A stretch of 53,278 nucleotides of DNA, the filler included, from Sphacelaria rigidula (Eukaryota), in the NCBI GenBank assembly GCA_964200075.2. It is 4 parts of 4 records of this genome, joined end to end, with 100 filler letters (N's around TTAATTAATTAA, not from the genome) between each part and the next. Parts side by side here need not be neighbours in the genome. Positions count along the whole stretch, not along the records: positions 1 to 13,246 come from CAXNAA020003032.1; 3 more parts are not named here. The stretch is one strand, 5' to 3'. Positions 1 through 40,035 of the stretch are shown one piece after another (positions within the stretch are counted from its first letter, which is position 1; each line of letters opens with the position of its first letter). The notes below the pieces were generated by a model. It was not told where the DNA came from and searched no databases. It worked only from the letters and a program-made list of their open reading frames with translations. The translations under genes were made by a program, and so were the position numbers.

Positions 1-2463
1 CCTAAATATACTCCCCCCCCCCCCCCCCCCCCCCACCCCACCCCCTTGATACGTACAGAGTTTCGAAATATCCCAGAGCACATGTGTGCAAAATTTAAGG
101 GTCTCACTTGAAAAACTTGCCTGAAAAATTGCGCGCGTGTGCCTTGAAGTGTACAAAATGTACACGGAATGCCCCCAATTACTTTAATGTAGTATACCAA
201 AGACGTTTTCCTTGTGCGCTTGAGATTTAGATTTTCGAGTTACTCAACGTAACTTACTACAAAATACAAACTTTCTTTACTCGTAGACCACCTCGGGACG
301 ACTCAAATTTGAATTGATTATTTTTTGTTTTGAGGCAATCTGTCCCGTCTTCTAGGGGTCTTCACGCGGGGACCCACGGAAGCCGCTGGAGAGCGGTAAA
401 CTTTGAAATATTCAACATTATTTTCCCATTTGGAGTATCCATATGCACCAAATTGCCAAGTTGTGAGGATGATCGGAGCTTTTCCACGACAGGAACAAGC
501 GAAACCGTCACGATGCTTTCTGGATCTTTGGTGCATATATCAGGACTGGAATTTCGACGACAAGACCCTCCATCGCCGAAATGCCACGTTCTGGGGTATG
601 AATCGCTCCAATACGAACCGTTTTCAACCCCGCTCTTCGCGTTGGATTCCCTAGCTGATGACGGTCACTGAGATTTGATGCATGAGATCAGGAACAACCT
701 GTCAGGATTTCACTTTTGTAATTTCACAATAATTTTAAGGCCCCTAATTGGCCGAGAAACATCTTCAATACCAGTGCCACGGCAGAGGATGCAAGAAAAT
801 ATCTGGCTATGTCACACTGTTCCACACCTTGGACAATATATGATCAATAGATGCAATAGTATAGGCGTATTGCAAGTATTGCTGGCTGACAATAGCCGCA
901 ATATGCCTATACTCTATGCAGTACGTTTCTCGTCTAATGCATATATTGTCCAAGGTGTGTACTATTCGCTCGCTGGTGGGGGTCACTACGATACCAAATA
1001 TGTTTCTATCAGGTCGGGTTTGCGTTCTGTATCTATCAACAGTGGGGCATAAATTTTTGGGTATTCACCCCGAGCCAGCCTGTAGCGTCCAGTCGTGCAG
1101 GAGGCCTTTTGTTCGCCGGGTAACTTGGGGGCGTTCGGAAAAGTTGGTCTGATGAAGACACAACGCCTACATGAAAGTAGGGAAGTCTGAGTCCGCTGGG
1201 TCGCTGACGCAGACGTACCCGTGTGGGTATCGGTGCGGCTAGCACAGCACAGAGTATCGAGCGATCTCCGCCGTATGCCGAGTTTTTCCGAGCGCCACCA
1301 TTGTGCTGACAGAGCCTTCGACACATTCAGGCGCAAGTACGATGCTGTGTGGTATGAACGCCCCAAAAACTTGCACCTGATCCCTTGGTTAGTAAGCGTA
1401 GATTCTACGGTTGCCATGCAAAACAAAGATCAGTATTTGTGTCTGACTCAAACCGCTTTTTTGTATACGCATATTTGTCCGATTTGAGCAGGATGTTGAC
1501 ATACAAAAAGTCAACGCCCACAAATGGGCAAATTAATCTAGTTTTCTCATAGATAGCCGGGAAACATGACCCAACGGGTCCGAAGACTCGATCCGCGGGA
1601 GGGAATCGGTTGCAGACATGGTGAAATCCCCAGATCTGTACAAGTGCAGATTCCTCCCTATAAAAAGTGGTATCGCGCTCGAGGGGAATAAAAGGACCGT
1701 TTACGCATAGGATTGCCATACTCCGAATGTCCCCGGGACTGTCAAGCCGTATTTTCGGAACAGGTGTTCATTTGTCAACTATAGACCTCTTTTCGGGAGA
1801 GGGATACGGCCAGTTCCTGTGGGTATGAAGGAGGTATGTGCAGAAAAATCCGGCGAATCAGCGCCGATTGTTGCTCGAACACGGACATTGGCGGGTGGAT
1901 AGCTTGCTGTACTCTTGGGTGGATTCCAGCGTACTCTCACGATTTTTCGTGCACATGGTTTTACTTTTTGCCATACTAGCCGTTTGTCGATACAAATACA
2001 AATAAAAAAATGTCGCTTTCCTGCGAGTTCGCCCGAGTCATTTCGGGAAAGCTGGAAGGATTTCTACCGCTGTGTGAAATAAATCCCTTGCCCGGCCAAA
2101 ATCAAACTGAGCGTGCGACAGACAGCAGGAAGTTTTTTTGAGGTGGCACAACCCGCCGAGCGACTTTTCCGGACCAAAGTCCGTGCCTAATCGCAACAAA
2201 AGGCATTCAGGGAGGAAAGTTTTCTTCATACCCATAGACGGCCGAAGGAGCATTCACAGCGTGGGTAGTTGAGCGCTAGGTTCTGAGCAGAATGATCGCC
2301 CATATCGTGAGATGTAACCCTGGCGACCTTCCCTCAATAGCTGCGGTCCCAAAAGAAACAGTACAATCTGGAAAAGCTTGGACGTTTTCCCAGTGAGCTC
2401 TTGTATTCACGTTTGTCGAATTGTGCACCAGGAAAGCTCTGTGAACGGGGCAAGATGAGGGTT

Positions 2464-2536
2464 GGGGGGGGGGCATACTCATTTGTTGCTTTCCTTAGTC
2501 GTTTGACCATTGACCACGCATCCCTTTCGAGACGGA
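2464..2536 (+). repeat. Dispersed repeat also present at 22406-22488
   Basis: Poly-G followed by ...ccttagtcgttt(g/t)(a/g)ccatt(g/a)accacgc(a/g)tccctttcgagacgg in both contigs 1 and 2. Confidence 0.75.
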
Positions 2537-5500
2537 GCACCGTGGCAAGATGAGGGTGGGAGGTGTTATTCCACAAATACAAACCTGCCCCTAGTATAGA
2601 TACTTGCACTAATTGGCGGTACCAAGTGGCAGTACCAGCAGTTTCTGCCAGCAAAAGCCACCCTCAGTTCCGTATATACATCCCAAGTCACATCACATCT
2701 TCATGGTGCATATGCAGGTCATTGAAAAACAGGCAGAATGTATAGACCGCGCACATACGAGCAAATCACGGCTCTGGTGACTGTGGGTGTGCCTTCCCTG
2801 CGATGGCGAGTCCTCCCCGTTGTGAAACCCGCTCTTGGTAACACTACTGTCATCAGTCCTTCTGGTCTCAACATCGTGCCTTGAAATTGTATATTGCACA
2901 CCCACGAGGATCTGCTACTGGCGATTTTCATGGGTATTCTTTTACTGTGAGATTATTTCATCATCGCGCCATCGCAACCGCCCCTTCGAGTCGCGAGAGC
3001 ACATGCTGAGCGAACACTTGCAACGGCTTGCCGCCGACGGCTGCGACCTTTATTAAGGAAACTATCACGACGTCTGGAATACTACGCAAATGCCGCTACC
3101 GCATGTCTTGAATACGATGCATCGTCTCATTGAGAGGAATCTAACCCACCTGTCAGGTTTGCTCGGCTTCGCGGTTTCGAAAACCCCAACTTAACAAACA
3201 CCCGAATAGGAATGAAGAAATGTAGCATTGGTGGTGATATCTAGGAGGTACCCTAAAACCCTAACCCCATGTCCACGTATTGCTCTTCACACAGCACACA
3301 CAACGCCTTGGCGCTACTAAGGCACATTTTTTTCACCAGGTCCCTTCACCGCGAACTGACTCCATTGACTCCTTGTACACTTGATGACTATGTATGCAGT
3401 TTGAATCCACAGTTACACAATGACATGTCGGATATTAGGTGGTTGCCAACAATTGCAACAGGAGAACAAGTGTACTGCGTCAAGTGTCGAGCCTATTGCC
3501 TGCCAAAAGGCATAGGCTCGATACTTGATGCAGTGCACTTTGTTCTCGTTGCAACTTCTATACAATACTGCAGCACCTATTGTCCAAGATGTGAACACAA
3601 ATATATCAGCTCAGACGACTGTACGACTCTAAGTGCCCTTTTCTTTTCCGTATCACTATCATTGGGTCGTTGACCGTGGTACATATGGCGCACTACACTT
3701 TCTGTCACACGAATGTGGATCACAGTTGTTCCCACGACACAGAAGACACACACGTGATTCCTTTTTGCCGACTCTACTCACATATTCCACTTTCCCGCGA
3801 ATTCTTCACACCAACTTTGTGGTCACTCCAACAAATGGTCAATCGGTCCTTTTGATATGACCACCCTGAGGCGTGAGGTGTAGGAATGATGATCTCGTGG
3901 ATCACAGGGATTCGCCACTGGTTCAAGGCTGCGTGTGTGCGTTTGTCTACGTGGATGCTGTCTCGGGTCCAGAGAAGTGACGTCAAGGGACAATTGTGGT
4001 ATACACCATGCTCCGAGTGACTGTGGGGGCTGCAATGGACACTGATCCGAGGTGACTCGGCGTTCATTCCGCAAGAATACGTGGGAAACATGCGGAGGGA
4101 CGATATTTTGCCACTTGCATGTGGGCGTGTTCGGGATGACGAGGTGATCTGGTTCTACCCCACCCCCCACGCCCTCCTCAAATATGATTGCCTCCAACTG
4201 ACCACGGCATTAAATCTCAAATTATGCGAGGCACTGGCGGCTGCCGCTAAAGCGCTTAGCCGGAGCGGTCTTGGCCAACACAATTAATTCGTGAGCGGTG
4301 ATTGATAGCACCGTGGAAATAGGTTGGAGACGGACGTATGTTTGAATAACGAAAAGTGTTGGAGAAAATATACGATTTATTGGAGTGCCACCTATGACGG
4401 GAACTAGCAGGTACTACTTACTGTGCTCAAGGGCACTCACTCACTCCCGCACGAGTAGACAATCAATAGGCGAACCAAACATAATTGCTAGTAAGACAGT
4501 AAAACAGGTCGGAGATTGGCATCGATTTTGTCAACCAAGGAACGTAGATGATACAAACAAGAGTGAAATAGTCGCACATACATGAGGGACAACGCAAATA
4601 GTTCCCACGAAGCCAAAATAAGGGGACGAGAGGGGTAGACAGTGTACAATTTAATTGGGTTTTTACCTGCAGTTGAACTTGAAATGGGGCATCTGCAGAA
4701 CTAAAAGATATATGCCACTCCTTGAGACTAGGTGACACGCACGAATGCTCCAGATAGGAACATGCTTAACTAACTCCTCGAACGCGGACGAGAAGACCAA
4801 AACAATGAACCTTCAATCCATACACGAGCAGGAAGCGAAAACGTGCATGGTCTTGGCACATGCATCCCAAGAAAAGTGTCCTGTCCTCGAAAATTATGGT
4901 GACTCATGATTAAAGCGAACGGGAAAACCGCAAAACCAACCCGTGCTTGTACACAAACGAAACGTGGATGTCATCCCTCACGCTCACGCAGGGTGGTTAC
5001 GTACGTATGTATGTGCTCAGAAAAAAAAAGAAGTTGATTTTGAGCAAGAAACGGTGAATGCTGCCGAGTGCACAAAGCGCCGAGTAACCGTACTGGCGCA
5101 CTTCTCACAGCGGTAGACGAACACCTGACAAAGCGGAATGGCAAACAAAAAACGAAAGCGTCTGACCAATTGAGAAAGAGGAGATAACTAAAAGCTTATT
5201 GGAGAGAAAATAGACGCGTGGAAGCAAACCGTGCAGGAACGCATGTGTAGCACGAACGGAAAAAACTAGAACAATCCTCACGAGATCGAACGGATACTAA
5301 CTTTCCCACGTAGGGATGCATGCATGTGCCGGAAAGAAGGGGAGATTTCGTCCTGAGCTATGAGTTGAAACAAGTTGGGTGCACGGAGTTCCAAGGAGCC
5401 GTGCACGTGTAGCAGAGCACCAGAGCACCCTTCAGAACGGCCGCTGAAGATCACATCAGAGAGATACATGCCAACATCCTACACCAAACGAGATGGTGCT

Positions 5501-6336
5501 ACTGTATGGAAAACAAACTAGAAGAGATTCTGGCCCCCCACGGAGGCAGGGGTGCGCTAAAGATAGCGAAGATTTCAGGATAAAGTGGACTACACGCAGG
5601 CACGCAACTGGAAAGACAAAAGGCAATCAGAGTCATGTCTGCGCTGAAAATAGGGGGGGAAATCGTTTCAAGCGAGAAAGATGAGTAAATACTGGGTGCA
5701 CAGAGGGAGGTGCAAATAACCGTACAGCACAGGTGCGCCCCTCACGGCGGCCATGAACACCAGCAACGTCACAGAGATACGAACGTCCCGAACCAAGAGT
5801 ATAAAAAGCGACCATATCAGACGCCAACGTGATGAGCAAGTATTGGAATGGTGTGGCAAACGTATATATAGAACAAAACAGAGAGAGCTAACAGTGGACA
5901 ACCCGTAGGGAAGTGATGCGAAATGGGGAGCAACAGCTCGCTGAAGACTTGGAGACCTGAAGAAGAATGCCCACCGCTGAAGCCGCAATAATCGAATGCT
6001 AAGCGCAAATTTGGGGTCTGGGGAGGTATTGTAGCAAAATGTTGCATTTTTACCGCGATTATCCAAACCAGGGCAGGAAGAGATAGAATTGGGCGTCGAA
6101 ATCTCCTTGCAAGATCCCTTGGTGCTTAGACGGCATTATTGGCAAAGATCGCGAAGGCCGAAAATGTTCCGACCAACGCTGCGCAGGCAGAAATTTTGTA
6201 GCTTGTAATTTCTCCATGTGAGAAATGTAATATGTCAAGTGGGAAAGGGATTCAGAACAGGGCGTTTGGCGAACGTTCGACTCAACATATGCCCGAGGTA
6301 TGATCGTGAAGAAGGTGGATGGAAAGAGCGAAATAA

Positions 6337-6378
6337 TGAAGTGTAGCAGCTGAAGTGTAGCAGCTGAAGTGTAGCAGC
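6337..6378. repeat. 14-bp tandem repeat x3 (tgaagtgtagcagc)
   Basis: Three exact copies. Confidence 0.9.
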
Positions 6379-6927
6379 ACGTGAGTCATGGAAACTACTT
6401 GTGTGGATTCGTTAATCAGAACCAGATGACATCGTGCCAACTCTTCGATGTACAAGAGCTGATCGACAAGGAAGCGGTTAGCAACGAGATGTTGTTTCCC
6501 CCTCTATTGTTGATAGCAGAAAATGATATAGTCAGTAGTCGATCTAAGGTAATGAGCCCCCGACTCGGCCCTTACCTTACCCCTCCGCAGTCAGCTTTCG
6601 CCCGTCGTGTACAACGCCAGCAACGGCGGCGGGCCGACGAAAATCAATTTCCATCTTGGACGAATGACAGAGTTTGGTGACCACTAACGTTGAGTCACTA
6701 TACGGTTTATTCCTGGGCATCAAAGTCCCTGTTCCCGACCTGAAGGCAGACTCGCAGACATCGAATTTGAATCCCTTACAATGGAAGGAATAGAAAGATG
6801 TATCCTGGTACTCACATACATACCATCTGGCGTCAGCACGATGGAATCGTCCGTCACATTCCTTCCTGTTATTACCAAACGACTGAATGTCATGCTTCCG
6901 TCCGACTCAAACTTGAACCGTTGACAG

Positions 6928-9900
6928 GCATGGCTGGACGACAACGGTAACTCTCGGATGAACCGCGGGTTCAGAATCCAGTATTCCAGCGCGCTGGGCC
7001 CTTATGAGGGCGGATTGCACTTTAGTGGGGGCATGAACAGCGATGTCTGCAAGGTGGGACAGTTGGAACGCCTCATAATCTTCACTGGATGAAATTTATT
7101 CCTTCGTGTTTGTGCGGGTCCTTGTGTACGCACAGAGCTAGCGTCGTCGGGTGTTGAAGTTGGCGTTGACGGAGATAAGAGGTGGCCTCGACAACCCATG
7201 AAATTTGGGTTTGGCCAACTGACATCTGAAAAAAATAGGCAATACAAGCCAAGGCCTTTTATTGGTGAGGGTGGTACATGGCAACCAACCTTGCTCCATG
7301 TTGATGCTTGTGATACATGGAAAATCCTTAACAGGCGCTTGGCATGGAGACCGTGTTCTCGAACGCTCTGACCGGGTGCAATCTTGGGGCAGCGGTGGGT
7401 GGAGCGGACTTCAACCCTCACAACAAGAGCGAGGCGGAAATCCAGAGGTGTGTATGTGAGTCTGATCACCGTTTCTCGGCATGAGGACCCACGAGAAATA
7501 GATGTCATGTGTGCCCTTTGTGGATACGGTGTTATTGTAGTGTTTTTGTACTGTTGATGTACTTCCTGATCCGTCTGCGACCCAGAGTTGTTCGTTTGAG
7601 CATAGTCTATCTCTCCGTGTCGACGACAGGAAAAATTCCTTTTGTTTCAGGTTTGTCCCCACTTGTTGTAGATTTCACCACTTAACAGAGGACACCATAA
7701 CTTGGACAGGTTTTGCCAATCGTACATGACAGAGCTGTCGAAGTACATCGGCCCGGACCTGGATATACCGTCGATGGGGTATGGCGTCGGACTCCCTGAG
7801 GTACGTTTCACTCAGGTTTCGGGTTGTGAACTAGCGTGTAGGAACAAGTTGTTCTGTATTTCCGTCCAACAATCTCTGCGCCCTACCGCTGTCTGCAGCT
7901 GTTCAGACGTGGTCTGCAAGTGAAGTACCGTACATTGCCAATCCTCACGCGTCACATGAGTTGTAGAAGCTGTCAGCCCCATGTGTCTATCGCCGGAATA
8001 CTTCTGTGTGCGCAGGTTGGATACCTATACGGCCAGTACAAGCGGATCAACGATCACGTCGCGCAGCGGGGACGGGGTGTTCTCTGGGGAGGAACCCATT
8101 TCTACCCTGAGGTTGGTACACTTCGTGGTTGGTATCCACACTCGCGACTTTCTAGTTACGTTGATACATTGGGGTGCACATGTTTATGTAGAAATAAGGG
8201 CCCTGTGTGTATATGTTGATGTGGACATGAACACATGGACAATACGTCGTTTTTGTTCCCCCCCTCCCCTTCCGCAGGCAACGGGATACGGGGTGGTTGA
8301 ATTCGCCAAGTGCGCCCTGGAGGACAAAGGCGACACTCTCAAGGGGAAGCGATGCTTGATCACGGGAAGTGGAAAGGTATATACAGCGATGTAGGCTAGG
8401 TTGTCCCGCATTAGGTGATGCATTCAGCTGAGTGATCGGCTTCAACATTGAGCGCGGGGCAAGCCGCGTAGCATTTGAGACGGTCATGAGGCGAACATAT
8501 GCGCAGGTCTTTGTAACAGTCGTGTTTCTGTTGCACTGGCCAGGTTGCTGTGCATGTAGCGGAGAAGCTTCTACAGCTTGGAGCGATCCCAATCACGTTT
8601 TCTGATTCAAGTGGGCACATCTACGAGCCAGAGGTACGTGATTATAGCGCGGCTTTTGTTCGCTGTTGAAACGGTGTCTTATCCATATTTATGCTGTGAC
8701 AAGATTGTGTCGAGAAGCACACCGTGCCCACGACCTCGTCTTGGCAAATTGGGCCATGGGAACTATTACATGGCTTGGAAATTCCGAACGAGTACCAGCT
8801 ATTTTGTGTGTACGCGTAAGGATTCGTAGCTTATTCGGTTTGTTGTGCACGAGATATTTCCCGAATTGAATACAGCACACTGGAGACCTTGCATTGGTCT
8901 TCACCTGAGCAACATAGTCATGGTGCGTAGAGCTACGTAAATACATATTCGACACCGCGGCAAGCGAGCGTAAGTATCGTGGTGGATGACGGACGTGACC
9001 TCCGAAGGATTAATGTAAATACTCGCGTTTTGTCTGAAGTAAGAAGTAGTTTTCATACTGCCAGGGTTATATTTTTCACCACATCTTTTCACGTCTCTCT
9101 CGGTCGGTTCTTCATCGTCCATCATTGGACCCTGTTTAGTCGCTCCCGTCGGTGCTCGCTGTATCACGGGATGGAAGTAGTTTCGTTCATTCTTCTCGTC
9201 TTGACCGCGCCCGAATTATCTGGTCCTTCACAGGGTATCGACTCTGCAAAGCTGCGTACGGTGGTCAAGATCAAATCGGAAAGAGGCGCCCGAGTTGGCA
9301 GATACATCATCGCGTCCACGACTGCCAAATACCAGGTATGTGCTCAAATGATGTCATCTACTTGCTGCGTTGGCTCCGTTGACGAAGCGACCCGGAGATG
9401 GAAAAGGGATGGATGTCGCCATCTACCGGTAGAACAAACACGCTGACATCCGCGATCGGGACGCTCTTGGTTGGACCTCGATCATTGAGATCAATAAAAC
9501 AATTGACGGCGTCACGACAATCATTGTATCGCTCGTGTCGCTCGTGTCGCTCGTGTGATGCAGGAGCCGTCGAACATGTTCGACATCCCTTGCGACCTGG
9601 CCTTCCCGTGCTCTCACCGCAATGAGATCGACGGTGAGCTTCTCCACCGTTCGAAACCGAAACGAGGATTGCGTCTAACAAGGATGGGTTTGGTTTGACA
9701 ACTGGGTTTGATTCGCACGTTTGTCATAATGTACTGTATTCCAATCACTGTAGTCAACTTGTCCATGTATTTTCACAGAGGCGGCAGCGACGCTCTTGGC
9801 GGACACAGGCTGCTCCGCCGTCATCGAGGGTGCGCACAGTCCTTGCACGAAAGCGGTGAGTTCGAGGCCATCACGTCTCGATCCAAAATTGCTTAGCCAA

Positions 9901-10687
9901 TGGTGACGAGTCGAATAGAGTGCCATTTTCACTCATCTATTGTTCCCTTACCGTGTACTGAGCTACGACCGTGGTAGACTGCCCGACTGAAATGTGCGCG
10001 CTTGCTCATGGTGGAAGTAATGGCCACAGGGACACGAACGTGTCACTGAGAGCCCCGTTTTTTACTTCTAGTTTGTGCCAGAGGGCCTCTACTTCTCTCA
10101 GACATGCACAACAATGCCCCTACCCTCGTTCATCTCACTCGCGCTGTAAATGTGTGTGCTGGCTGTTTTTGACGTGACTTGCGTAGGCCAAGGCGGTGTT
10201 CCGCAAGCGAGGTCTGGTGTTCGCTCCACACTCGGCCACCCTCGCTGGCAGTGGGATCGTCAGTGGTCTAGCACTCGCCACCAACCCCCTCAGCGCGAAG
10301 GAAAACATCCACGATAGGGTGGCTGAACAGATGAGCATGATATATAGCGATGTCAAGGCGACTGCCACCGAGTTTAATTCCCGCGGCGACTACGGAGCAG
10401 GTATTCATGCTGTTCTTGTGTGTTGTGATCCTGGCGTATCCTGTGATTTCGTTTGAAGTTTCGCGGTTCCTGCGAAACACCGAGAAAAACAGACGGCGAT
10501 CCACGGTCAAATCTGAACGTTTCTCGTTCGTATAACGGATCTCTTTGAAGCTTAAATGTAGATCATCCAAGCACATGTAAATATCTGAACAGGATTCGTC
10601 TCCCACTGTGCTGTTTGGTTTGCAGGCGCAACCATATCCGGATTTATGAAGGTCGCCGACGTCATGCTTGCTCACGGCGCTGTGTAA
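6928..10687 (+). CDS. GDH: NADP-dependent glutamate dehydrogenase-like protein (ELFV dehydrogenase family), 11 exons, 5'-partial; catalytic residues substituted (probable pseudo-enzyme)
   Basis: GT-AG exons at 6928-7053, 7335-7447, 7710-7800, 8016-8111, 8278-8376, 8544-8633, 9234-9335, 9564-9633, 9779-9855, 10187-10400 and 10626-10687 splice in phase into 1140 nt (379 aa + TAA) with no internal stop. The protein is colinear with hexameric [101 protein letters not shown]. Confidence 0.93.
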
Positions 10688-13246
10688 TTTCGATGAAAAA
10701 TGTGCTCTGCCTTGCACGTGAGATGCGGGCTCTGCTGCGCAGGGCTTCACGAATGGCACTGTGTGTTGCTGAAAGGGAGGTCAAGGGGCGTGAGAGGTTT
10801 CAACACACGTTCTTCCCTCGTCCTTACAAACTATATATCGCACTCCCCAAAAGTTTGCTCGTTACATCTTGCTGCCTTTATGTTTGAAGAACATGACCGC
10901 CAATGCTGGAGGAGGCGCGGTGCGGTATCTCGGATGCTGTTGTTGGTGCAATGGTGATAACGTGTGGGACTTAGTCAGACTTGGGGCGATATTTGAACAA
11001 AGAGTGAACTCATTGAATGATGCCACCAAATTTCTTGTGCATTAGATATTGGATTTGAAATCTGTTTATACCCACGCCAAATTGTTTACTCGTCACCGTT
11101 CAGGTAATACCGTCAGTGACTGATGCTCAGGCCTCACTAATAGGCGATAGCCACATATGTGGAGATCAATACGTTACAGTGGAGGTCGATGAATTGCAGC
11201 GTTCAATATTCCGTCGCAAGCCCATAATATTTCGTCGCAAGCCTATTTAGAAGCAAGAGAGAGTTACATGTTGTTAGAGGAGATGAATGGAAGAATAGTT
11301 CCAAGCGAGACTTGAGGGGGATCGTCACCGGCCTCCGTCTTTACTACTGATGGCGGCGGCCTCGTCCCATGGTCGATGAGGTTTTCAACTTCTCTCTGGG
11401 GCAAGTGTTGTTTTCGTACCGTAGACGATCGTCTCGATGGGTGTGGGGCAAACATCGCATCGGGAAAAACTGAAACGCGCTAAACATCCACCCGTAGATG
11501 CGAACGCCTTGTTGTGTTGATTCACCTTCAGAAGATATGTTCGACTGCTTGTGAACCAATAGTGGCCACATGGAATTGATTCTATTCACTGTCGCTGACT
11601 TTGGACTCTCGGCACGGACGTCCCGAATCCAAATGAATGTCATTCCTCATGACATAAGATCAGGAAAAGCATCTCTTCTTTTAAATGTTCAACATCATTT
11701 TCGAATATAATCGGTTGTAGATGAGGACGTTGACGAAGTGTACTCGTATTTACTCAACACAGTAGCGAGGATATGGGACATTCATATATAGGCCATGATG
11801 AAACACGAACACAATACCAAGTGCAGTCCAAGTTGTCACCACTCTCTGTAATGCGCACGTCTCGATCCCTCGAACAGAGACTCCAGCCGCATCAAAGCAG
11901 GGGGGGGTAATGTGGTAGCCACTCTACTTGTATGCGAGTGATTTCCTGTAAGCACATGTAACCCGGCGACGAGGCACTCACGGGAGGAGGTCCAACAGTG
12001 ACCGAGAGATCCGAAACTTTCATGTCTGTGTACAGCGGGATATCCGGGACCCTCGGCAACAGGTCTCGGAGCTCGGAGGCATCAAGATTCAACATAATTA
12101 TGAGTATACAACGACCATCGGGCCTTGGGGAGTCACAAGTCTCTGTACCCTGTACGACTCAACTCCTCTGCTCTGTATGGATGTGTTGCTGTACACCCAC
12201 AAGTGACTGCAGCAGGCTGACGCTGGCAGATGTTAAGCTGCCGCGCGAGCTGTGGCTAAATTGTGCAAGAAAAAAGATACTATTATGTTGAATGGATGCC
12301 TATGACGAACACAGACTTACTTGTAGAGTACAATGGACTGTCGAAGTCCGGTTGAAAAGTTGGAGAAGTGAAGAGTCAAAAAGTTTGGCTCGTGGGTTCT
12401 CGGGTGCTCCTCTTCCCAAGAGCTCGTCGTATCGTAATCCTATCAAAGATTCTCGATCGTACTGGACCGTTATACTCAGATCGATCTACAGTGTACTTGC
12501 TATAGATGTAATTATAGAAAACTCCTACGAGTATATCCGATGTTTTTACCAACATCGGTTGCTCCGCATGCATACCAAACAAACGACACATGCTACCACC
12601 TGCGCTATGTCACTGAGCATTGCCTGAATAGTCTATGCCAGAGTCTATCCTTAACATGCTCACCACCCAGTCTCACGGCCAATCCTTGCTGTGAATATCA
12701 AGAGGGAAAATACACCTCGCTTTCGAGATACCTCGGGGAGATCCTCCCTAAGGAACACCCTACAACCCTAGAGAAGGAGCCTTTACAGTTGAAAACGTAA
12801 CTATATTCTGCGATGGATCAATTAATTGAACGTTACAATCTACAGTACTCGTACACTGTTACCTTCATTCCGTTTAAATCTACACTTGATACCCCACCCA
12901 CATTTGAATTAAACTCATTTCCACCAGGGTTTTATAAAAACGTTGATATCCTCGAGTGTTTAGCTAGCACGTCAGGAATAGTTGAACACCCAGGGCAAGT
13001 CGAGTAGAAGAGTATATAAACAGCCGACTCATCGAAACTGAGGATGGAGCCTGCCATTGAGGATAGGAACCCGGAGGATCAAAATATTCCATTCGTATTC
13101 ACACCAAATTGTCGAAATGAACAGCCGATTTTTCATTTTGGAGTCTGACACTAAAATGGGGCTGAAGTCGCATTTCTCTATTAACAGCAAATCATCTATG
13201 TTGAGGATGGTACTTTTTGTTGAGGATGAAACACAGTCGGAAAAAC

Positions 13247-13346
13247 NNNNNNNNNNNNNNNNNNNNNNNNNNNNNNNNNNNNNNNNNNNNTTAATTAATT
13301 AANNNNNNNNNNNNNNNNNNNNNNNNNNNNNNNNNNNNNNNNNNNN
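13247..13346. other. Artificial contig linker (N44-TTAATTAATTAA-N44)
   Basis: 100-bp N run with a six-frame stop cassette; identical linkers at 26592-26691 and 39936-40035. Confidence 0.98.
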
Positions 13347-20500: not shown

Positions 20501-21481
20501 TCCGTAGTAGTACATGGTTACAGCGACACAAGACAGCACAGATGAGCGACATCAACGTGTACATATGTCGTGTGTGTGGGGGAGTTACACTTCCTCGGAT
20601 GTTTTTGGAACTTCTCCGTGACTTCCACCAACACCCTGTGCCCTGGGGGGGACTTCGCCAGCATTCCGAAAACTTGCCGGTGGATATTTTCCGTAATTAC
20701 ACCACTATTATTCTCGAAACGGTAGGGGGAGGAGCGGGAGTATTTTCTTCATTCACACCGCGAGGAATGCTCGTCGATCTCGGATTACATATGCACGGAA
20801 AGTCACCACATACATCCCGTTTGTCCAAATAGTGTAACGCTAGTGGGCCAAACATGAGGAAGCGAGTAGAATAACCAAAGTTCCACGAGAGTCGGCGTTT
20901 TGCGGGAGTGCGTATCTACTGTAATACGCGATACCGAAATGTAAGGCGCGTATCGGAGGAGAGATTGAGGTGTGTCTCGAGACTATGGGTCTGTCCCGAG
21001 GAAGAAGCGAAGTCGAAACGTCTGACGAACATTCCGGAAAAACTGTATCCAAAGATGTGCGAAAACGAGGTGGGGGAAGGGGGGGAGGGATGACGAGTAG
21101 GTTTGGGTGAGCCCTCCAAGATTTTTGGGCGAGGTTAGCAACCTGGGTCTTGTCTTACGGTACAGGGAGGATGTCCCTGATCGCAATGTGGGAGAGTAAA
21201 CGAGAGGATTCCATCTTTCGGGTATCGTCAGCATCAGTCCTAGCGAAGCTCGACGACGTAGGGTTTTCATCTCAAACGAAACATTCGTATTCTCGACGTG
21301 TTGTGTGTGAGGAGCCACACAGTGGAGGAGGGCGGATGGGGGGGGGGGGGGAAGGAGGACCAAAAAACTAGAAGCATGAGGGAGGACCTCGGGAGGGACC
21401 ACGGGAGCGCCGGGANNNNNNNNNNTTTTCCTCTAAAACGATACTTTGGTTTGCGCGGGGGGTGGGGTGGGGGGGGCCACA

Positions 21482-26591: not shown

Positions 26592-26691
26592 NNNNNNNNN
26601 NNNNNNNNNNNNNNNNNNNNNNNNNNNNNNNNNNNTTAATTAATTAANNNNNNNNNNNNNNNNNNNNNNNNNNNNNNNNNNNNNNNNNNNN
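26592..26691. other. Artificial contig linker
   Basis: N44-TTAATTAATTAA-N44. Confidence 0.98.
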
Positions 26692-27076: not shown

Positions 27077-28105
27077 CATGCATTGTCCATACCAAATTTT
27101 ACGCTTCAACTCTAAATATTGGGGTGAACACACCCATGTGAACTTCAAATCCGTCTCTAGGCTGGCCCAGGTCGTACTGTACCGAGGTGTTCACGCAGCC
27201 AGCGCGTGCTCCAGATTGCAGCATGGGCGCACCCCTCTGCACCACGCTCGTAACGGTTAGATCACTACCATAGGTATATTTTTTCACTCCGTATGCCAAG
27301 GTCTCCACAAGTGTTTGGTGTCTCATACACCCCCCCCCCCCAAATGGCGTCTCGCACGCTGTTGTCGTTGGGCACCCCGAGGGTCGCTCACATACATGTC
27401 GGGTAAAATCGACGATGAATAACACCCCCCAAGTTCAAATTGGAAATATCTGTTATTTTCGCCGCACCACCGCCCTTGCTGGCATGTGTGTGATAGAGAA
27501 CAGTAGTAGCAGTGGCGGAAACATTGCCTTATATTTCAACGACATGTTTTTCAGCGCACAGAGACGCGTCCTGTCCAAGAAGAGAGGCAGAGACAAATCC
27601 ATCTTTGCGTTGGTGAGCTCCACAGTCAAGAAGAGACGACAGAATCTCGCCGCACCTCGATGTTCTGGCACATGGAAAATTTTGCACATGCTGGTAGCAT
27701 CGATGATGCCAGTGTCTCGAGCGATTGGTAATCGCCGAGCGAGGACACAAAGGACACGGGCGAGGAGCTTCCTCTCTGGCGTTGCTTCTCTCTCTGGTGA
27801 TATCGTCATCGACATGCGTGTACGCCGCATTCGTTAGGTGCACCTAGCCACAACTGCTCAACTGCTGCGACCATTTGGGGATAAGATGGCTTCGCTCGGT
27901 CGTAAGTGTTTCGCGTCATCTCTGCAAAGGAGAAATGCCACTCAACCTCGTTTTTGAGATGGACCACATTTTTCGGGGTCCGCTGTTATTTTGATGTTCA
28001 ACTTCACTGTGTTCGGCCGTTGCACTTAGCATATCTTGGTGTCATGCTCCTTTGATTAGAGCCTGCCGACCAGACACACTGCCCCTGCCTTTTTAAGCAC
28101 ATAAG

Positions 28106-31100
28106 TTGCGTACGATTATCATGTCGCACAGAAATAACGTTGGCTCTTCCCCTCAATTGGGAAACCAATCGCTTCGTCGGACACGGAGTCAAACCACTGG
28201 CGCTTCGAAATCTTTTAATATGAGTGTCACGTCACCTTCGACTCATCGCCGCACGTATGCGAGCGCTGTTCGATCTTCGGGATCTGAAGACCAACCTTCG
28301 AGCGATGCTCGTTCTTCGAGGCTTGAAGACGAGACTATGACGCAGCGACCTGCTCTCTCACGTTCCGACTCGGACTCAGAGAACAGGCTTGTGCTACTAC
28401 CTGAGTCATTGGTTCCTGACGGACATGTCAGTGAACCCATAACGGTGGATTCCGTAGCGCCCCCCTCGCTGCGTCCTGTTCTTCCGAATCCCAATGTGGA
28501 ATCCGAAGTCAGGATTGTGCCTCCAGGTGAGTCGTTGCCCCTGGACACACGTGTCCAGCTTGGCCCTGTAACGGTTGCTTCAGCCGTGGCATCCCGTCCC
28601 ATAACGGCTGACAACTCTCGAGACGATTCTGTCCCGACGAAGCGTATCGCTTCTGGGGCAAGAGACTTTGTCTCGCGGGCTTCTTCCGCTACGGACCCCC
28701 ATCGCACGACTCTCGATAGTCCCGTGCGCCCTACTGCGCAGTCCAATGTCGGACCCGCAGTCGCGGCCATGCATGCTGCCACGCAGACTCTGTATCGCAC
28801 TTCATCGGCGTCGGCGCACTCGCCAGCTTCAGCTCTTGTAGAGGCATTTACGGCCTTTTGCCAGGCCACGCTCCAAGACCAATTGGCGTCCGCTCACGTG
28901 CAATTCAACGATGATTCTGCACCGGCCAAGCCCAAACCCGTACGTTTGGCTCCCTGATCGGCGACATCGCGTCCTTCGCTCGTCACTCATGCAAAACTTA
29001 ACGAACATGAGTCCAGCCCCTCCTCAACGTCAAACCAGAGTCTTGCTCGCGCTTCTGACCGGCGCCGCACACTGACAGTTGGTCACGACCACGTCTCCCG
29101 TTCTGGCAGTTCTAAGGGTAATGCCCAGCAAAGCGTGAATTCATCGCGCGTTTATACACGCCCGAGAAATGTCGTTCATGGTCGCATATATGACGGTAGT
29201 TCACGCCATAGTTCCAATCCATCGCGCGTTCCGAAGCGCCCGGTGAATGCCAACCGTGACCGTACTTACGAGGATGATTTGCGGCACAGATCAAGTTCTT
29301 CGCGCGTTCACTCGCGCTCGAAAAAGACCGATCATGCAACCGCGCGCACCCCTCCTGCTCCGCATCTGTCACGCCGCCGTCATGTACGCAATGATAACAC
29401 TGTACATGCTGATGATATCCAAAACATGTTTTCGGACATGTCACCGGCTCTGGAATCCTCAATTGAAGGATCCGGCCGCACCTCATCGCAAAACCGACGA
29501 CCCTGCACTGACCGCGAACCACCGCCCCGCTCCGATGCTGCGATTATTCGTCGTCATCAACAACGACTGACAGACCTCGAGCGACAGCTACTAACAATGA
29601 GCACTTCAAGATCCGCTGCCGCTGCACTACAATCACCACGGAGCCCACTGGCGTTCCTGCAGCTACTGCTGCCGCAGCACCTGCCGCTGCCGCCGCCGCT
29701 ACCTTGGCCGCTACGCCTTCTGCCGCCCCCACGACGGCTCCTACAACCGCCGACGCCTCGTCTGCGGTTGACACGGACGCCGACAGTGGTCAAACCACTG
29801 GCCCGGTCGAGGATGCCCCCGTGCGCTCGCACCCATAGGTGGAGGTTCTCCCTCTGCCCGGCGACGAGCGCTGCCCGACTGGCCTCCTCTTGAGGCTGTT
29901 CCGAAACCACCCCCGCGCGGAGTAGCTGCAGCTCATTGGCGACTACGCCTCAAAAGCACCAGCACTCGCACAAGACATACTCGACCAACAACGAGAAGCT
30001 CACGCCGCCGCTGCCCGCCTCCTAATGGAGGAGCATGCTGAGAAGCAAAAGGATCTCCAGCGGCAGGCCTCCAACGCTCAATGCACGAGTACGGCTGCCC
30101 AACGAGCGCTTCACGAAGGTCGTACTGCAGCAAAGCGGCTCAGAGACGGGTGCGCAAACTGGAAGATCATATCCGACGGACGGCTGAAGAAGCGGCTACG
30201 TCGGTGGCGTGCTTGTCAAACCATCAAGCCTCTTCGCCTTCCGCCAACAAGTTGCTCAGTGCCCGTCCTCGTCGCCAGCCTTCGACCCAAACGGCCCCGC
30301 TCAAGACTGGTCAGCCATCCCACAAAATTCCACGTAAAGCTGACCAACAGTCGTACGCCGCGGCCGCTGCCGTACCCACGACGGCCCCAATACCACCACC
30401 TCGAGGAGCAAGCTCGGCGGCGAATAACGCCCCTACCCAAGGTCTTCAACTGGCACCCCACGAACGAGATTGGCTCTCTCGTTCCGCGGCCGATCATACA
30501 GGTCCTTTCCGTCGCAGCAACCACCTTCATTGCTCCCGCGAAGCATGGACCTTAATTTCGTAGCGAATGCTCCACGCCGTTGGTGTTTATGTGGACCTTC
30601 TTCCCCAATGAGGGCGTACCGGTGCTCACCTTGGGCCAACTGGTCCTTCAAACGATTATCGGCGATCACTCGGATCACCAGACTTACGTTGACGTTGTCA
30701 CCAAACGTTTTGCGGCGCTCCGCGCCGCTTACAACCCTCATCCCGGCGCCACCATCGCCGACGGAGACGAAGATGAAGATGAATGGACTCCCGCAACCAC
30801 CAACTGCGGGGGACAGAAGAAGAACCACCGGCGAGGTGACGACGACAGCGATGGCGGAGGTTCGCGCCGCCGCCATGGTGGTGGAGGATCTTCTTCGGGC
30901 GGCTCCAGACCGAACCGCCCCACTCGCAACCCTCGCAACCTGCCCCGCAAAAAAATCGGAGGTAATTCTTGCGGATCTTCCGCAACCGTCTGGAACCGGT
31001 GTGGTACAGACCTTCCCCCCTCGGGTCCGGCGACCTCCAGGCAAGTGATCCCTAAATTGGCAAAATTAAAATGATCCGCATAGTTTTCTCACATCCATCT

Positions 31101-31460
31101 GAATATACTGTCTCTGTATTGCAGCTACTCGGGCAGACTCAGCTCTATCGGAAGCTGCTTGTTCACTAGCTTCGGAACGTTCTTTGTCAGCCGCAGCGGT
31201 GGCTAAAGCGCGGGCTGCAGTAGAAGACAAAGGACGGTTAGGTGTGTCCGTATCGGATAAACCTAAAATGCGGGCTCGAATCCCAACACCAGAAACCCTG
31301 GTACCTTCACTGCGGATCGCCTCGATCCATGACGTGCCGACGCCGGCGTTCTTCGGTCTTCCACGCCACCGACAGCACGAGCGAAGACTTTCTCAACACA
31401 GCCCGCAGAGCCCTTGTCTAAAACTGCTCACTCGACTCCCCCGGCACTATCCAGGAGCGT
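28106..31460 (+). pseudogene. gag: Frameshifted gag-like / ORF1 region of the Gypsy element
   Basis: Chain of long Ser/Pro/Arg-rich + strand ORFs (28106-28957, 29135-29893, 30081-30563, 30580-31074) upstream of pol; positional inference only. Confidence 0.5.
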
Positions 31461-31625
31461 AACTGACGGCCGTTCAAATCGACTCCCGTCTCCAACCTCC
31501 ACACACTTTTCAACGCAGCCCGCAGAGCCCGCGACTAATATTATTCGCCCGGCTCCCCCGGCACTATGCAGGAGCGCAACTGACGGCCGTTGATATCAAC
31601 CATCGTCTTCACCCCTCCACACACC
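31388..31625 (+). repeat. About 119-bp direct tandem duplication between gag and pol
   Basis: cagcccgcagagccc...cccccggcactat(c/g)caggagcg(t/c)aactgacggccgtt...cctccacacac occurs twice. Confidence 0.85.
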
Positions 31626-31987
31626 GCGTAACAGTTGTCACCCCGCGACTCAGAACAATATCCGGCTTTGAACTTGGTCCTTCAGTGCCGAGTATAAGTC
31701 TGAGGTGTGGGAAGACCAACCGCCAGTCCCTGAGGCAAAGGCTTCCCTCAGCGACCGCACGCACAGGTAGTAGCAAGCCTTTTTCAGCTGAAACAAGTGT
31801 TGCTGGTTTGAGCTTCACCAGATCGGATCATGTAATTCCCACTCAGTTGGATCGAGCTCCTTCCCCGCGATTTTCAACCCGCACGGACCTTCGGCTGGTT
31901 CTAATAACAACCACCCCAACATATCTTCGGCTATGACCCAACAGCCAAGCTTGCCTGCGGAAAGCAGCCCACAAGTTTCGCTCCGTC

Positions 31988-34900
31988 ATGGACTGCTGCC
32001 GAGATAGCCCCCTCCCGAACCAGCCAAAAAAGTGCACGGAGGCGATGAGCATAAATACCGTCAGAGTTGGTATTGGGCTGCACGACGCGACTAATTTGGG
32101 CGTAATAGCTTATTTTGGACTGCTACACGCCTCTCATGTGGGTGGAATATCTGCAAACGAGCCCAATGGTGGGATCGCAGCCGTTTCGTGGGGGGGCTAT
32201 CTCGGCATTAGTCCATGCCCGATGCTGACTCCATCCACGCAACTGGACGCAGTTGTGGTTTCATCACAAAATTCTTTGGAACTTCCCCGACCTTCGTCAC
32301 GGCGGAAGAGAAAGCCCCGTAAACATGCCCTCAAGGACGCGCGCGCATCATCACGTACACCTCTTTCGAGCGGAAATCCTCAACCTCAATCTCTCCAAAA
32401 TGCGACGACTTTGAGTTCGACGGCTCTATCAATTATCCCGGAAGACACAAAATCAAATAATTCTGACGGCGCTACTCCCTCAATCGACGACTCCAGCCCC
32501 GCATTTTCTGGATCCCCCTTGGACGGTGATCCCTGTCAACCAGAGACGATTATTTACGAAATCGCCAATGGTCACTCTGACTGTGCCACATCTGGAAATA
32601 ATATACCGTCCACCCCCTTCTCTCGTGAGACATCTGACCCACCGGCGGATCACCCGCCGTGCGTCTTTGCTGTCAGCCCCGCTGACCCTGACCAATTCAC
32701 CTTTCGGGAACACGGTCCGGATCTTGTCGGCGGTAACGTGTCTGTGGATCCGGCCACTTTCACTACACGCGTTGCGATCCATTCCGGTCCAAACGCTATC
32801 ACGCCTACGAAATGCGTATCCTTGTTGGACAGCGGCAGCCCGCAATCATTTATTCGCGAATCAACATGAAAACACATGAAACAGACTGGCACTGCAACTG
32901 CAGCTTGTGAAACCACCACCAAACCTCGAGTGTGGGGCGGTTTCGGTGATTCTGCCGCACCGCTGGCGACACGTAAATCCGTACGTCTCAGCGTACAATT
33001 CTTTCACAACACCACTCGATCTGCCAGCCTGGCAGTCTGGGCATACATTGTCCCCGACAGCACCATGCATCACGCCATATTATTGGGCAGAGATGGCTAT
33101 ATGCGGTTTAATAAACGCACCTACCGCACGCTTCCACCACTAGCGCCACATTCCACGCCTCGTGGAAAATTCAATCTCGAACACTTTGGTACTCTCCATG
33201 GCGCCCTGGCTCACCAGAAAAATCCTCAAGCAACCGGAGCTGCTTACCATCTACGATACAACGATAGCGTTGGTATTACACTCTCCAACGACCCCCAACG
33301 ACCCCCAACTTTAAGAAGTTGGACTAGTTCGCCGAAATGGCGGGTCATTATTTTGCCGAAATGTTACCCGTACTGGCGCACCAGCCGACACAGAACATCT
33401 TGTGTCGGCGGGACAACGACAACAACTCCTCCCTCTTACGGGTCATTCTAACTTGGAACCCGGCGATGTTTTAGAAATCGCCGCTGCTCCCCTGATGCAC
33501 GTATCACTCGAGACGTGCGTAACAGAGCCTGCCGCGCCGAACGCCACATCTCCGGCGGAGGCAGTCCATTGTGTCGATGAACCCTATTTCGGCCTCGGCT
33601 CTGCGACTCCACCCCAGGTTCACACCGTGGATCCTGCCCAGTCAAATTCCGATCCTCCTGCTGAAGTGCTTCAACGCTTATCACCAGATTCTCGGAATAG
33701 TTTCTTGCACACGTGGAACCAACTGCCGCCACAGATACGCGACATCAATTTTGATCTTCATGGGCCCGGCTGGGAACCGGCAGTCATCCGAGAACTCAGT
33801 GATGTCCTGCTACAGTATCAAGACCGATTTTCTCGATCCAAGTCGGATCTTGGGCATTGCAAAACACTGCTCTTTGAGATTACCCTCCAACCCGGTGTCT
33901 CGCCGATTTCTTCTCGGCCATACCGAACAAACCCGATCCTTGCCAAGAAAGTAAACGCCATTTTGGATGCGTATTTGGGAGCGGGATTAATACAACATTC
34001 CTCCTCTCCTTGGGCCTCGCCCCTTGTGGTCGTCCCCCAAAAGGATGGAAACATACGCATAGCCGTGAATTATCAACAGTTGAACCGCGTCACTGTAGTC
34101 GGCAAACTTCCAATTCCCCGCATTGATGAAGTCTTCGACTCCTCAGGCGAAGGCAAAATATTCAGCATCTTCGACCTCGCTTCTGGATTTGTTCAGAATG
34201 CTATACACTCTGACACAGTCCCACTGACGGCGTTTTGTACCTCATCCGGACTCTATGAGTGGCTTCGGGTGCCACAAGGCGCCGCCACTGCGCCGGGATA
34301 CTTTCAACGCTTAATGCAACGCGTCGCAGAGGGCCTTCAGCATATCATCATGTACCTGGATGACGCTATCGCTTTCGATGCCTCACCTATTGCACATATC
34401 CGCACTCTACGAGAAATTCTCTCTCGGCTACGCACGCACGATTTGAAGCTGTCTCCATCCAAAGCTCGCCTTGGTGCGACTGACTTGGATTTCTTGGGGC
34501 ATTCGATTTCGCCAGCAGGCCTGCATCGGGATACAAACGAAGTCAAGGCGATGACTGATTTGCCGATGTCAACTAACATTTCTCAACTTCGCTCATTGTT
34601 GGGCGGGCTATCCAACTACCGCAAATTTGTGCCGCATTTATCTAAACGGATTCGCCCTCTTAGTTACTCAAGAAATGAGCCGTGTTTTCCTTCCCAACCG
34701 AAGTGGAGAATATCACCCGCGAATTCCTCAAGACGCTCACCGAGAAGCCGGTACTCTGCTTCCTTAATTGGGAGGCAGTACAAGATGGCTTCCGCCTTTT
34801 CCGACTCCACACTGACGCCAGCACAAGAGGATTTGGAGGAGGATGGCTCCGTCCGACCCCTCCTCTATATCAGTCGCGCTACCCTGCCCAACAAGGCCAA

Positions 34901-37900: not shown

Positions 37901-37990
37901 CTGCACCACGCGGGTCCTGGTGCTTCCAGCGCCTTAAGTCCAAAGGACTTCGCCGCGGTCTCCAGCGCAACATCGACCATACCCACGACG
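31988..37990 (+). pseudogene. pol: Gypsy pol pseudogene: aspartic protease, reverse transcriptase, RNase H, integrase, chromodomain
   Basis: PR LLDSGS (D at 32828). RT SPWASPLVVV, FDLASGF, PQG and YLDD (34353-34364). RH LHTDAS, ELE, DHGAL and NADLLSR. IN HHCC (CH..SCHLG...CFKC), DYFGPLP, FTDRFSR and WTGPF. Chromodomain MYKTHWHG...SWERESDL. Multiple frameshifts and stops. Confidence 0.93.
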
Positions 37991-38031
37991 TCCACGCCCC
38001 GCTTTGAACCGCGCTCCCTTGTCGCAACTGT

Positions 38032-38062
<31 letters not shown>

Positions 38063-38344
38063 CTCCCCGCTATCCCCACCNNNNNNNNNNTTTGCCCCCT
38101 GCTCCCTGTTGCCAACTGTTCCCCCCCCCCCCCCTCCCCTATTTTTCTGTAGCATAGTCTACCCTCCCTTCTCCACCAGGACCCTCTTCTACGATATCGG
38201 AACAGCGCCACCTACATCAGACGACGATCAAGAATTATAGAGATGACCATTATCTACGACTACTGGAGCTATAGTATCCCTTTGCGGCTGGCGCTCGATC
38301 TGGTTGGATCACCGATTTTCAGTTTTTTAATTTCGCAGCTTTTG

Positions 38345-39935: not shown

Positions 39936-40035
39936 NNNNNNNNNNNNNNNNNNNNNNNNNNNNNNNNNNNNNNNNNNNNTTAATTAATTAANNNNNNNNN
40001 NNNNNNNNNNNNNNNNNNNNNNNNNNNNNNNNNNN
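39936..40035. other. Artificial contig linker
   Basis: N44-TTAATTAATTAA-N44. Confidence 0.98.

Follow-up and report, generated by a model that had tools for sequence, protein, structure and literature searches.

Homologues of amino-acid dehydrogenases that have lost catalysis and taken on regulation have been described from bacteria. In the accessible parts of two reports, Thermus thermophilus GdhA is an inactive, leucine-responsive regulatory subunit and GdhB is the catalytic one (PMC9570180; bioRxiv 10.1101/2025.10.31.685773). The available text of the second report also describes T. thermophilus ADLP, an alanine dehydrogenase (AlaDH)-like pseudoenzyme that has lost the catalytic lysine, retains NAD(H) binding, senses NAD+ and regulates a CoA transferase (bioRxiv 10.1101/2025.10.31.685773). 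Here we analyze a gene for a glutamate dehydrogenase (GDH) homologue of the brown alga Sphacelaria rigidula, located in a 53,278-nucleotide stretch of its genome (the window; assembly GCA_964200075.2), together with the family of stramenopile proteins to which it belongs. Our verdict is that the gene encodes an ancient, selected pseudo-GDH, and that it is neither a decaying gene nor a domain of a tandem GDH. A full-text literature search found no description of this family or of a dead GDH in stramenopiles.

Replacement of substrate-binding and catalytic residues in the orthologue family

In GDH, K89 and K113 bind the substrate carboxylates, and K125 and D165 act in catalysis; the residue numbers are those that we take to apply to the Clostridium symbiosum enzyme. 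All four residues are replaced in the window protein (K89E, K113S, K125V and D165G), as are Q110 (T) and R205 (Y); of the glutamate-binding residues K89, Q110, K113 and S380, only the last is unchanged (S). The codon coordinates that a preliminary description of the locus had assigned to K89E, K113S, K125V, D165G and R205Y are exact (Table 1).

Brown-algal orthologues of 495-527 amino acids (aa) were found in Undaria, Ectocarpus and Discosporangium through the longest exon. The window protein is 91.6, 90.0 and 89.2% identical to these three, respectively, over 379/379 residues and without a gap, and all three carry GPYEGG, METVF, GAA[AV]GG, PSMGYG and YPE. Identity is 72% with Tribonema, 56% with a diatom and 50% with an oomycete. 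A family profile built from 8 members retrieved 830 proteins at E <= 1e-60, and the best 120 of these (E 2e-287 to 5e-183), on which all family counts given here are based, form one family of proteins of 417-571 aa with one GDH domain each. Named members come from brown algae, Chrysoparadoxa, Tribonema, Heterosigma, Nannochloropsis, Ochromonas, Octactis, Chrysophaeum and Triparma, and from the diatoms Fistulifera, Thalassiosira, Cylindrotheca, Epithemia, Nitzschia, Chaetoceros and Leptocylindrus.

The preliminary description had proposed a eukaryotic (algal) dead GDH, a proposal that lysines retained by the orthologues would have contradicted. Lysine is found at the K89 position in 0/120 members, at the K113 position in 1/120 and at the K125 position in 0/120, so that the losses are common to the orthologues and the proposal of a putatively dead enzyme holds. 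The K89 position is E in 83 members and A, S, Q, H, D, G, V, N, T or F in others; at the K113 position the other residues are S, T, A, G, R, I, C, M and V; and the K125 position is occupied by V (65), A (27), Y (12), F (9), S (3), C (3) or M (1). Aspartate is absent from the D165 position throughout, with G in 119 members and S in one. Q110 is retained in 9/120 and S380 in 15/120. The oomycete members (Peronosclerospora, Globisporangium, Pythium) combine D165G with K89M, K113R and K125H.

This pattern was compared with 65 positions that are conserved at a level of at least 90% in 34 canonical class-I GDHs. Thirty of them are kept in the stramenopile family, 34 have become variable and one has switched (D165G); the 34 newly variable positions take in all residues of substrate binding and catalysis. 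The family has also gained 53 conserved positions of its own. Since K89, K113, K125 and D165 are replaced, the known mechanism of GDH predicts that the protein is a pseudoenzyme, which would be unable to bind, or to deaminate, either glutamate or 2-oxoglutarate.

Phylogeny of the family

All 25 ochrophyte rows of a first tree (80 rows) fall into a single clade with a stem of 0.49 and a support of 100 in the Shimodaira-Hasegawa-like approximate likelihood-ratio test (SH-aLRT). The order within this clade matches the algal classes, with brown algae placed together with Tribonema and Chrysoparadoxa, and Triparma together with the diatoms. In a second tree of 49 rows, made by a quick search under LG+G4 so that its supports deserve less trust, the oomycetes join the ochrophytes (95), and the canonical GDHs lie together with a land-plant row beyond a branch with a support of 99. 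The terminal branches of the brown algae are 0.05-0.11 in both trees, which, with the gap-free identities of the window protein to its orthologues, points to purifying selection. Neither tree places a canonical GDH inside the family clade. The closest canonical GDHs, from a spirochaete and green algae, are 42-45% identical. The simplest reading of these results is a single loss of D165 that predates the split of ochrophytes and oomycetes.

Two further observations were made among the related proteins. A fourth group that bears the N-terminal motif described below (P0014, P0040, P0027, P0358) retains Q110, has Q at the K113 position, F or R at the K125 position and either D or G at the D165 position, and stands beside the canonical clade (support 86, second tree). 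In the 920-aa protein P0101, ~470 additional N-terminal residues precede a GDH-like part (residues 472-890) that is unusual at the key positions, and the protein forms a long branch among the canonical GDHs.

Gene structure and transcripts

The 11 exons of the gene on the + strand of the window total 1140 nt, comprising 379 codons uninterrupted by any stop and the terminal TAA. The 10 introns are 145-600 nt long, and 10/10 begin with GT and end with AG. The GC content is 0.58 in exons versus 0.48 in introns, and GC at third codon positions (GC3) is 0.70. A tblastn search of the whole window with the Undaria orthologue (P0002) recovered 11/11 exons. The same search with P0002 residues 1-122 gave chance matches alone in the window (E above 7).

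Contigs of the sequencing runs X1-X3 and X7 were aligned on window positions 1-11500; the depths of these runs are unsuitable for ranking expression. All 10 junctions, with their GT..AG ends, are present in spliced contigs of X1, X2 and X3, with no difference from the window exons, and these runs are taken as RNA because their contigs are spliced. The contigs of X1-X3 hold 28-38% of the sampled words of the stretch, which is about the exon share. In the DNA run X7, by comparison, none of the 10 junctions is found, and a 9691-nt contig is colinear with 2518-11500 without differences. Each transcript contig extends 550-581 nt upstream of 6928 into sequence that aligns nowhere in the window, and the last transcript codons before 6928 translate to EPERAIQFRV, which is the orthologue sequence preceding AWLDDNG. 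Because the transcripts continue into sequence from outside the window and the search with residues 1-122 was blank, position 6928 is an internal splice acceptor and not the gene start, the intron before it exceeds 6.9 kb, and ~122 N-terminal codons lie outside the window. The window thus holds the last 11 exons (379 of ~500 codons, or about the 3' three quarters) of an expressed nuclear brown-algal gene. The preliminary description had read these 11 in-phase GT-AG exons and 379 open codons as a maintained gene and had asked for the splicing to be confirmed; both points are borne out, with the qualification that only the 3' part of the gene is covered.

The location of the 5' exons outside the window would also suit a pseudogene copy that was inactivated or truncated only recently, the real gene being elsewhere. 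However, the transcripts match the window exons without differences and are spliced from upstream sequence onto 6928, the 379 codons are open, and the substitutions are common to orthologues down to the oomycetes. We therefore give the pseudogene explanation next to no credence.

The exon at 6928 begins within the GDH domain, which means that more coding sequence lies upstream, and this would be expected if the window protein were the inactive second domain of a tandem GDH-GDH fusion, as the preliminary description had offered as one option. In the orthologues, however, the 417-571 residues accommodate one PF02812 + PF00208 pair, and a search among proteins of 126-2000 aa gave 11 matches, none longer than 527 aa. 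The 550-581 nt of transcript upstream of 6928 are too short for a second GDH and fit ~122 codons plus a 5' untranslated region (UTR). The fusion was rejected on the grounds of the single-domain orthologues and the short upstream transcript, and it is hardly conceivable as an account of the gene.

Fold, dinucleotide site and oligomer interface

Structure, Pfam and NCBIfam tests were run on the Undaria orthologue P0002. Its Pfam scores (PF00208, ELFV_dehydrog, 185 bits with a gathering cut-off of 23.4; PF02812, ELFV_dehydrog_N, 135 bits with a gathering cut-off of 25.3) place it in the ELFV (Glu/Leu/Phe/Val) dehydrogenase superfamily. With the NCBIfam equivalog model for NADP-GDH (NF006929), P0002 scored 441.4 bits, below the cut-off of 536, versus 755.6 bits for the canonical control P0015. 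Among solved GDHs, phmmer matched P0002 to Plasmodium falciparum GDH2 (3r3j) with an E of 5e-114 and to the enzymes of Corynebacterium glutamicum, E. coli and C. symbiosum with E of 1e-105 to 1e-87. The alignment to solved GDHs confirmed on P0002 the motif mapping of the preliminary description: the canonical FEQIFKN reads METVFAN, GGGKGGSDF reads GAAAGGADF, IRAEATG reads FYPEAAG and PCATQNE reads PCSHRNE; GPYKGGLRFHP and PAGDIGVGGRE are replaced, and PSKAANAGGVAVSGLEMSQN is replaced by another 20-residue sequence.

An AlphaFold2 (AF2) model of P0002, built with 76 family sequences, has a predicted local distance difference test score (pLDDT) of 89 and a predicted template modelling score (pTM) of 0.88. 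Residues 1-38 are disordered in the model, and the blocks of the N-terminal motif at residues 41-60 have a pLDDT of 77-93. The best Foldseek match is C. glutamicum GDH (5gud_A; template modelling score (TM) 0.83/0.93, root-mean-square deviation (rmsd) 2.2). As modelled, the protein has the full two-domain fold of a class-I GDH (GdhA-type, hexameric, NADP-type), cleft included. The dinucleotide motifs are retained in most or all of the family, with G294 and D318 in 120/120, A299 in 117/120 and G296 in 101/120.

The two-fold interface strand, P0002 residues 113-121 (EPERxIQFR), is near-canonical in the alignment to solved GDHs. E113, P114 and E115 are conserved at a level of at least 90%, and R116 and F120 are invariant among the 76 sequences. 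A two-copy model of P0002 residues 33-501 scored 0.32, versus 0.00 for the best of 3 controls; this mark is reached by 21/30 proteins whose solved structure pairs two copies of one chain and by 0/23 solved as single chains (17/29 and 0/30 for eukaryotes). Contact agreement between the runs is at least 65% and partner pLDDT at least 82, and the modelled interface spans residues 106-135 with strand 113-121 at its centre, where residue 118 pairs with 118. Because GDH hexamers have already been solved, the two-copy result may stem from resemblance to those hexamers and not from self-binding.

These interface data bear on the possibility of a non-catalytic subunit that co-assembles with an active GDH into a hetero-hexamer, as in Thermus. 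Strand 113-121 is among the best-conserved parts of the protein, and the two-copy model pairs through it (with the caveat of GDH likeness). The Thermus pair of non-catalytic GdhA and active GdhB, on which the preliminary description had drawn, is a real precedent in the text available to us (PMC9570180; bioRxiv 10.1101/2025.10.31.685773), and PDB 3aoe is among the structural matches. Against a hetero-hexamer, the family clade contains no canonical GDH, even the closest of these are far from the family in sequence, and the family persists in lineages as distant as oomycetes and diatoms. Moreover, it has an N-terminal motif of its own and 53 family-specific conserved positions, both of which indicate a function of its own. 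A Thermus-like hetero-hexamer therefore appears unlikely to us.

N-terminal motif and presequence

The ochrophyte, oomycete and labyrinthulomycete groups all share an N-terminal motif that is absent in canonical GDHs. It consists of GVH(G/Q), 6-10 residues and then W(R/K)N(K/R)PLF(R/K)RxGDxxFKTGxEA. In the form W[RK]N[KR]PLF.R.G....F[KR]TG it is present in 116/120 members, and 3 of the 4 exceptions are models cut short at the N-terminus. The motif occurs in all four brown-algal orthologues; in S. rigidula, the exons that would encode it lie outside the window. Residues 1-122 of P0002 comprise a putative presequence, the segment GVHG...WRNKPLFRREGDQRFKTG and the first helices. In 22 named members, the stretch ahead of the motif contains 3-13 K+R versus 0-4 D+E and is rich in hydroxyl residues. 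Because it is basic and hydroxyl-rich with few acidic residues, this region suggests a mitochondrial-type presequence. The conserved new motif itself points to a gained interaction.

Proposed role and points that weigh against it

Taken as a whole, the observations are probably best explained by an expressed, conserved pseudo-GDH that acts without catalysis. Selection maintains the domain-I core and its interface strand, the N-terminal motif and, in the dinucleotide fold, GSGxxA and SDSSG. The pseudo-GDH would be imported into mitochondria, where it would use its GDH interfaces to form GDH-like oligomers and would serve as a regulator or scaffold of mitochondrial carbon-nitrogen metabolism that binds a nucleotide of the NAD(P)(H)/ADP type. 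As to the form in which it would act, a homo-oligomeric sensor or scaffold is a serious candidate, if one to which we would grant somewhat less than an even chance; a subunit mixed with another GDH-family protein is a good deal less probable, and a new enzyme less so again. A more specific version can be offered only tentatively: a dedicated hexameric, GDH-derived sensor of stramenopile mitochondria, whose dead clefts and half-kept dinucleotide folds would bind a nucleotide or nitrogen metabolite, and whose WRNKPLFRR...FKTG arm would dock on and regulate a different enzyme within the glutamate/urea-cycle hub of mitochondria.

Several points weigh against the proposed role. The first is the labyrinthulomycete sister group of Hondaea and its relatives (P0019, P0347-P0353, P0079, P0110, P0130), in which Q110, K113 and D165 are kept and the K125 position is K, R or H. 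This group lacks K89 (H or R) and has E at A163, and it carries the same N-terminal motif together with a second conserved upstream motif (...SINSG...). Because Q110, K113 and D165 are kept there, activity possibly persists in the wider family, which may include, among its labyrinthulomycete members, active dehydrogenases of changed specificity. Second, the former glutamate pocket contains E (83/120) and H (94/120), and these residues, with the 53 newly conserved positions, would be compatible with another ligand or another reaction as well. Third, the predicted inactivity follows from residue roles that we have taken as given. Fourth, the PCATQ and GAN positions, which presumably lie on the nicotinamide side of the site, are variable. 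The N of GAN is H in 39, Y in 23, N in 19 and Q in 15 of the 120 members; the window protein has H (EGAHSP) versus N or S in its brown-algal relatives (EGAN/EGAS). This variability fits a relaxed nicotinamide pocket, and with the assumed location of PCATQ and GAN, signs of selection are seen on the adenosine/pyrophosphate side but not on the side of hydride transfer. With the dinucleotide fold half kept, binding of NAD(P)(H) is putative. Finally, the putative mitochondrial targeting is read from residue composition, and the runs X1-X3 carry the guessed label 'RNA?', their RNA nature being concluded from the spliced contigs.

Some of these points also bear on a neofunctionalised enzyme, in which a remodelled pocket (E/H for K89/R93, a hydrophobic residue for K125) would serve another NAD(P)-dependent reaction, perhaps with a basic or neutral substrate. 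Consistent with such an enzyme are the 53 newly conserved positions, the retention of GSGxxA and SDSSG within a strongly conserved protein, and the labyrinthulomycete proteins with K113, D165 and a K, R or H at K125. In contrast, the K89, K125 and K113 positions vary among family members, the Lys/Asp pair has no new invariant polar replacement among the best 120, and the PCATQ and GAN motifs, assumed to mark the nicotinamide side, vary. We consider a neofunctionalised enzyme improbable, and a pseudo-GDH acting without catalysis remains our preferred explanation.

If the sensor described above is real, some of the proteins that annotations and models list as 'NADP-GDH' in diatoms, kelps and oomycetes are regulators and not enzymes. 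Database labels include 'Glutamate dehydrogenase 1 (NADP-dependent)' in Ectocarpus and Tribonema and 'NADP-specific glutamate dehydrogenase' in oomycetes and diatoms. In diatom nitrogen studies, annotated GDHs, which may or may not include members of the family, are treated as enzymes that work in ammonium assimilation or recycling (PMC4588885, PMC6779911). Should the whole orthologue group be dead, flux models and transcript-based inferences on GDH in diatoms, kelps and oomycetes would need re-checking. With D165G common to ochrophytes and oomycetes, the family would also be an unusually old eukaryotic metabolic pseudoenzyme, and one that is easily testable in Phaeodactylum or Ectocarpus.

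Coordinates and other features of the window

The exons and the remaining features of the window are listed in Table 1. Within the long upstream intron, the G-rich element has extreme depth in four runs, with many loose ends and joints that go back; the bin 2305-2688 has a depth of ~70,000-81,000 in X1-X3 and of ~2 million in the DNA run X7. Because of this depth and of the loose ends and joints, the element is read as a highly repeated sequence. In the 3' UTR, two differences are each seen in a single contig (C>T at 10931 in X3 and G>T at 10936 in X1), and these may be alleles or errors. Outside the gene, an open reading frame (ORF) of 664 aa contains reverse transcriptase (RVT_1, E 1.4e-21) and RT-RNase H (E 8.9e-17) domains, and is on this ground probably a long terminal repeat (LTR) retrotransposon. 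The window contains 8 runs of N with 284 bases in total, which are masked stretches or assembly gaps.

Table 1. Positions of the GDH-like gene of S. rigidula and of other features along the window
Feature	Position	Strand	Content
Upstream intron (portion)	1..6927	+	Part of a long intron; without an exon for the N-terminal ~122 residues
G-rich element	2464-2545		Short; extreme depth
Splice acceptor AG	6926-6927	+	Precedes the first exon in the window
Exon	6928..7053	+	AWLDDNG...GPYEGGLHF; first exon in the window, internal to the gene; codon GAG 7006-7008 in GPYEGG (K89E); R93 position reads H
Exon	7335..7447	+	Q110T; codon TCG 7359-7361 in METVFS (K113S); codon GTG 7395-7397 in GAAVGG (K125V)
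Exon	7710..7800	+	PAGD replaced by PSMG; codon GGG 7777-7779 in PSMGYG (D165G)
Exon	8016..8111	+	...WGGTHFYPE; codon TAC 8103-8105 in FYPEATG (R205Y)
Exon	8278..8376	+	ATGYGVVEF...; first half of the GSGKVA dinucleotide motif (8365-8376)
Exon	8544..8633	+	Remainder of GSGKVA (8544-8549) and SDSSG motif
Exon	9234..9335	+	Contains a segment almost invariant across the stramenopile family
Exon	9564..9633	+	Canonical PCATQNE position reads PCSHRNE
Exon	9779..9855	+	GAN position reads EGAH
Exon	10187..10400	+	PGKAANAGGV stretch replaced
Exon	10626..10687	+	Last exon; stop TAA at 10685-10687
3' UTR	10688..11500	+	At least 813 nt; X1 record 6 and X3 record 16 unbroken over 10622-11500, contigs extend further
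N runs	13247-13346		44+44 bases, 12 bases apart
N run	21416-21425		10 bases
N runs	26592-26691		44+44 bases, 12 bases apart
GC-rich block	28000-38200		GC 0.53-0.58, strong negative GC skew
ORF	33315-35309	+	664 aa; RVT_1 and RT-RNase H
N run	38081-38090		10 bases
N runs	39936-40035		44+44 bases, 12 bases apart

Comparison with known systems

The class-I hexameric NADP-GDHs (P. falciparum GDH2, 3r3j; C. glutamicum, 5gud/5ijz; E. coli, 4fcc; C. symbiosum, 1bgv/1hrd) have the same fold and domain order as the stramenopile proteins, and share with them the interface strand, GSGxxA, SDSSG and the C-terminal helices. They differ in that K89, Q110, K113, K125, D165, R205 and N373 are all replaced in the stramenopile family, which in addition carries a presequence and a conserved motif of ~30 residues that class-I GDHs lack.

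The land-plant proteins labeled 'NADP-specific GDH-like' or 'uncharacterized' (~637 aa; P0018, P0172-P0185) also show losses, with K125A, D165E and K89R; the cluster of P0018 has 209 members from Euphorbia, Malus, Cucumis, Prunus and others. Unlike the stramenopile family, they keep Q110 and K113, have their own extension of ~195 residues and are without the WRNKPLFRR motif. Because the land-plant rows group with canonical GDHs in both trees, this loss is independent.

Thermus GdhA, as far as the accessible text describes it, is likewise a GDH homologue without activity, used there for regulation. It belongs, together with GdhB, to a different GDH subfamily (3aoe_A, E 1.4e-29; 3aoe_E, E 8.6e-22; Foldseek identity 25%), and it comes from a bacterium. 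For GdhA, hetero-assembly and the binding of leucine are demonstrated; for the stramenopile family both are hypothetical. ADLP, in the portion of its report at hand, is an amino-acid dehydrogenase pseudoenzyme that acts as a metabolic sensor, and it offers the best analogue for the proposed mechanism. It differs in that it has the AlaDH fold and not that of the ELFV family, is bacterial and has a known partner, while nucleotide binding and a partner are putative for the stramenopile proteins. The known kind of protein to which our family corresponds is that of dead GDH homologues such as Thermus GdhA; what is new is an independent, eukaryotic, stramenopile-wide family with another pattern of loss and a new motif.

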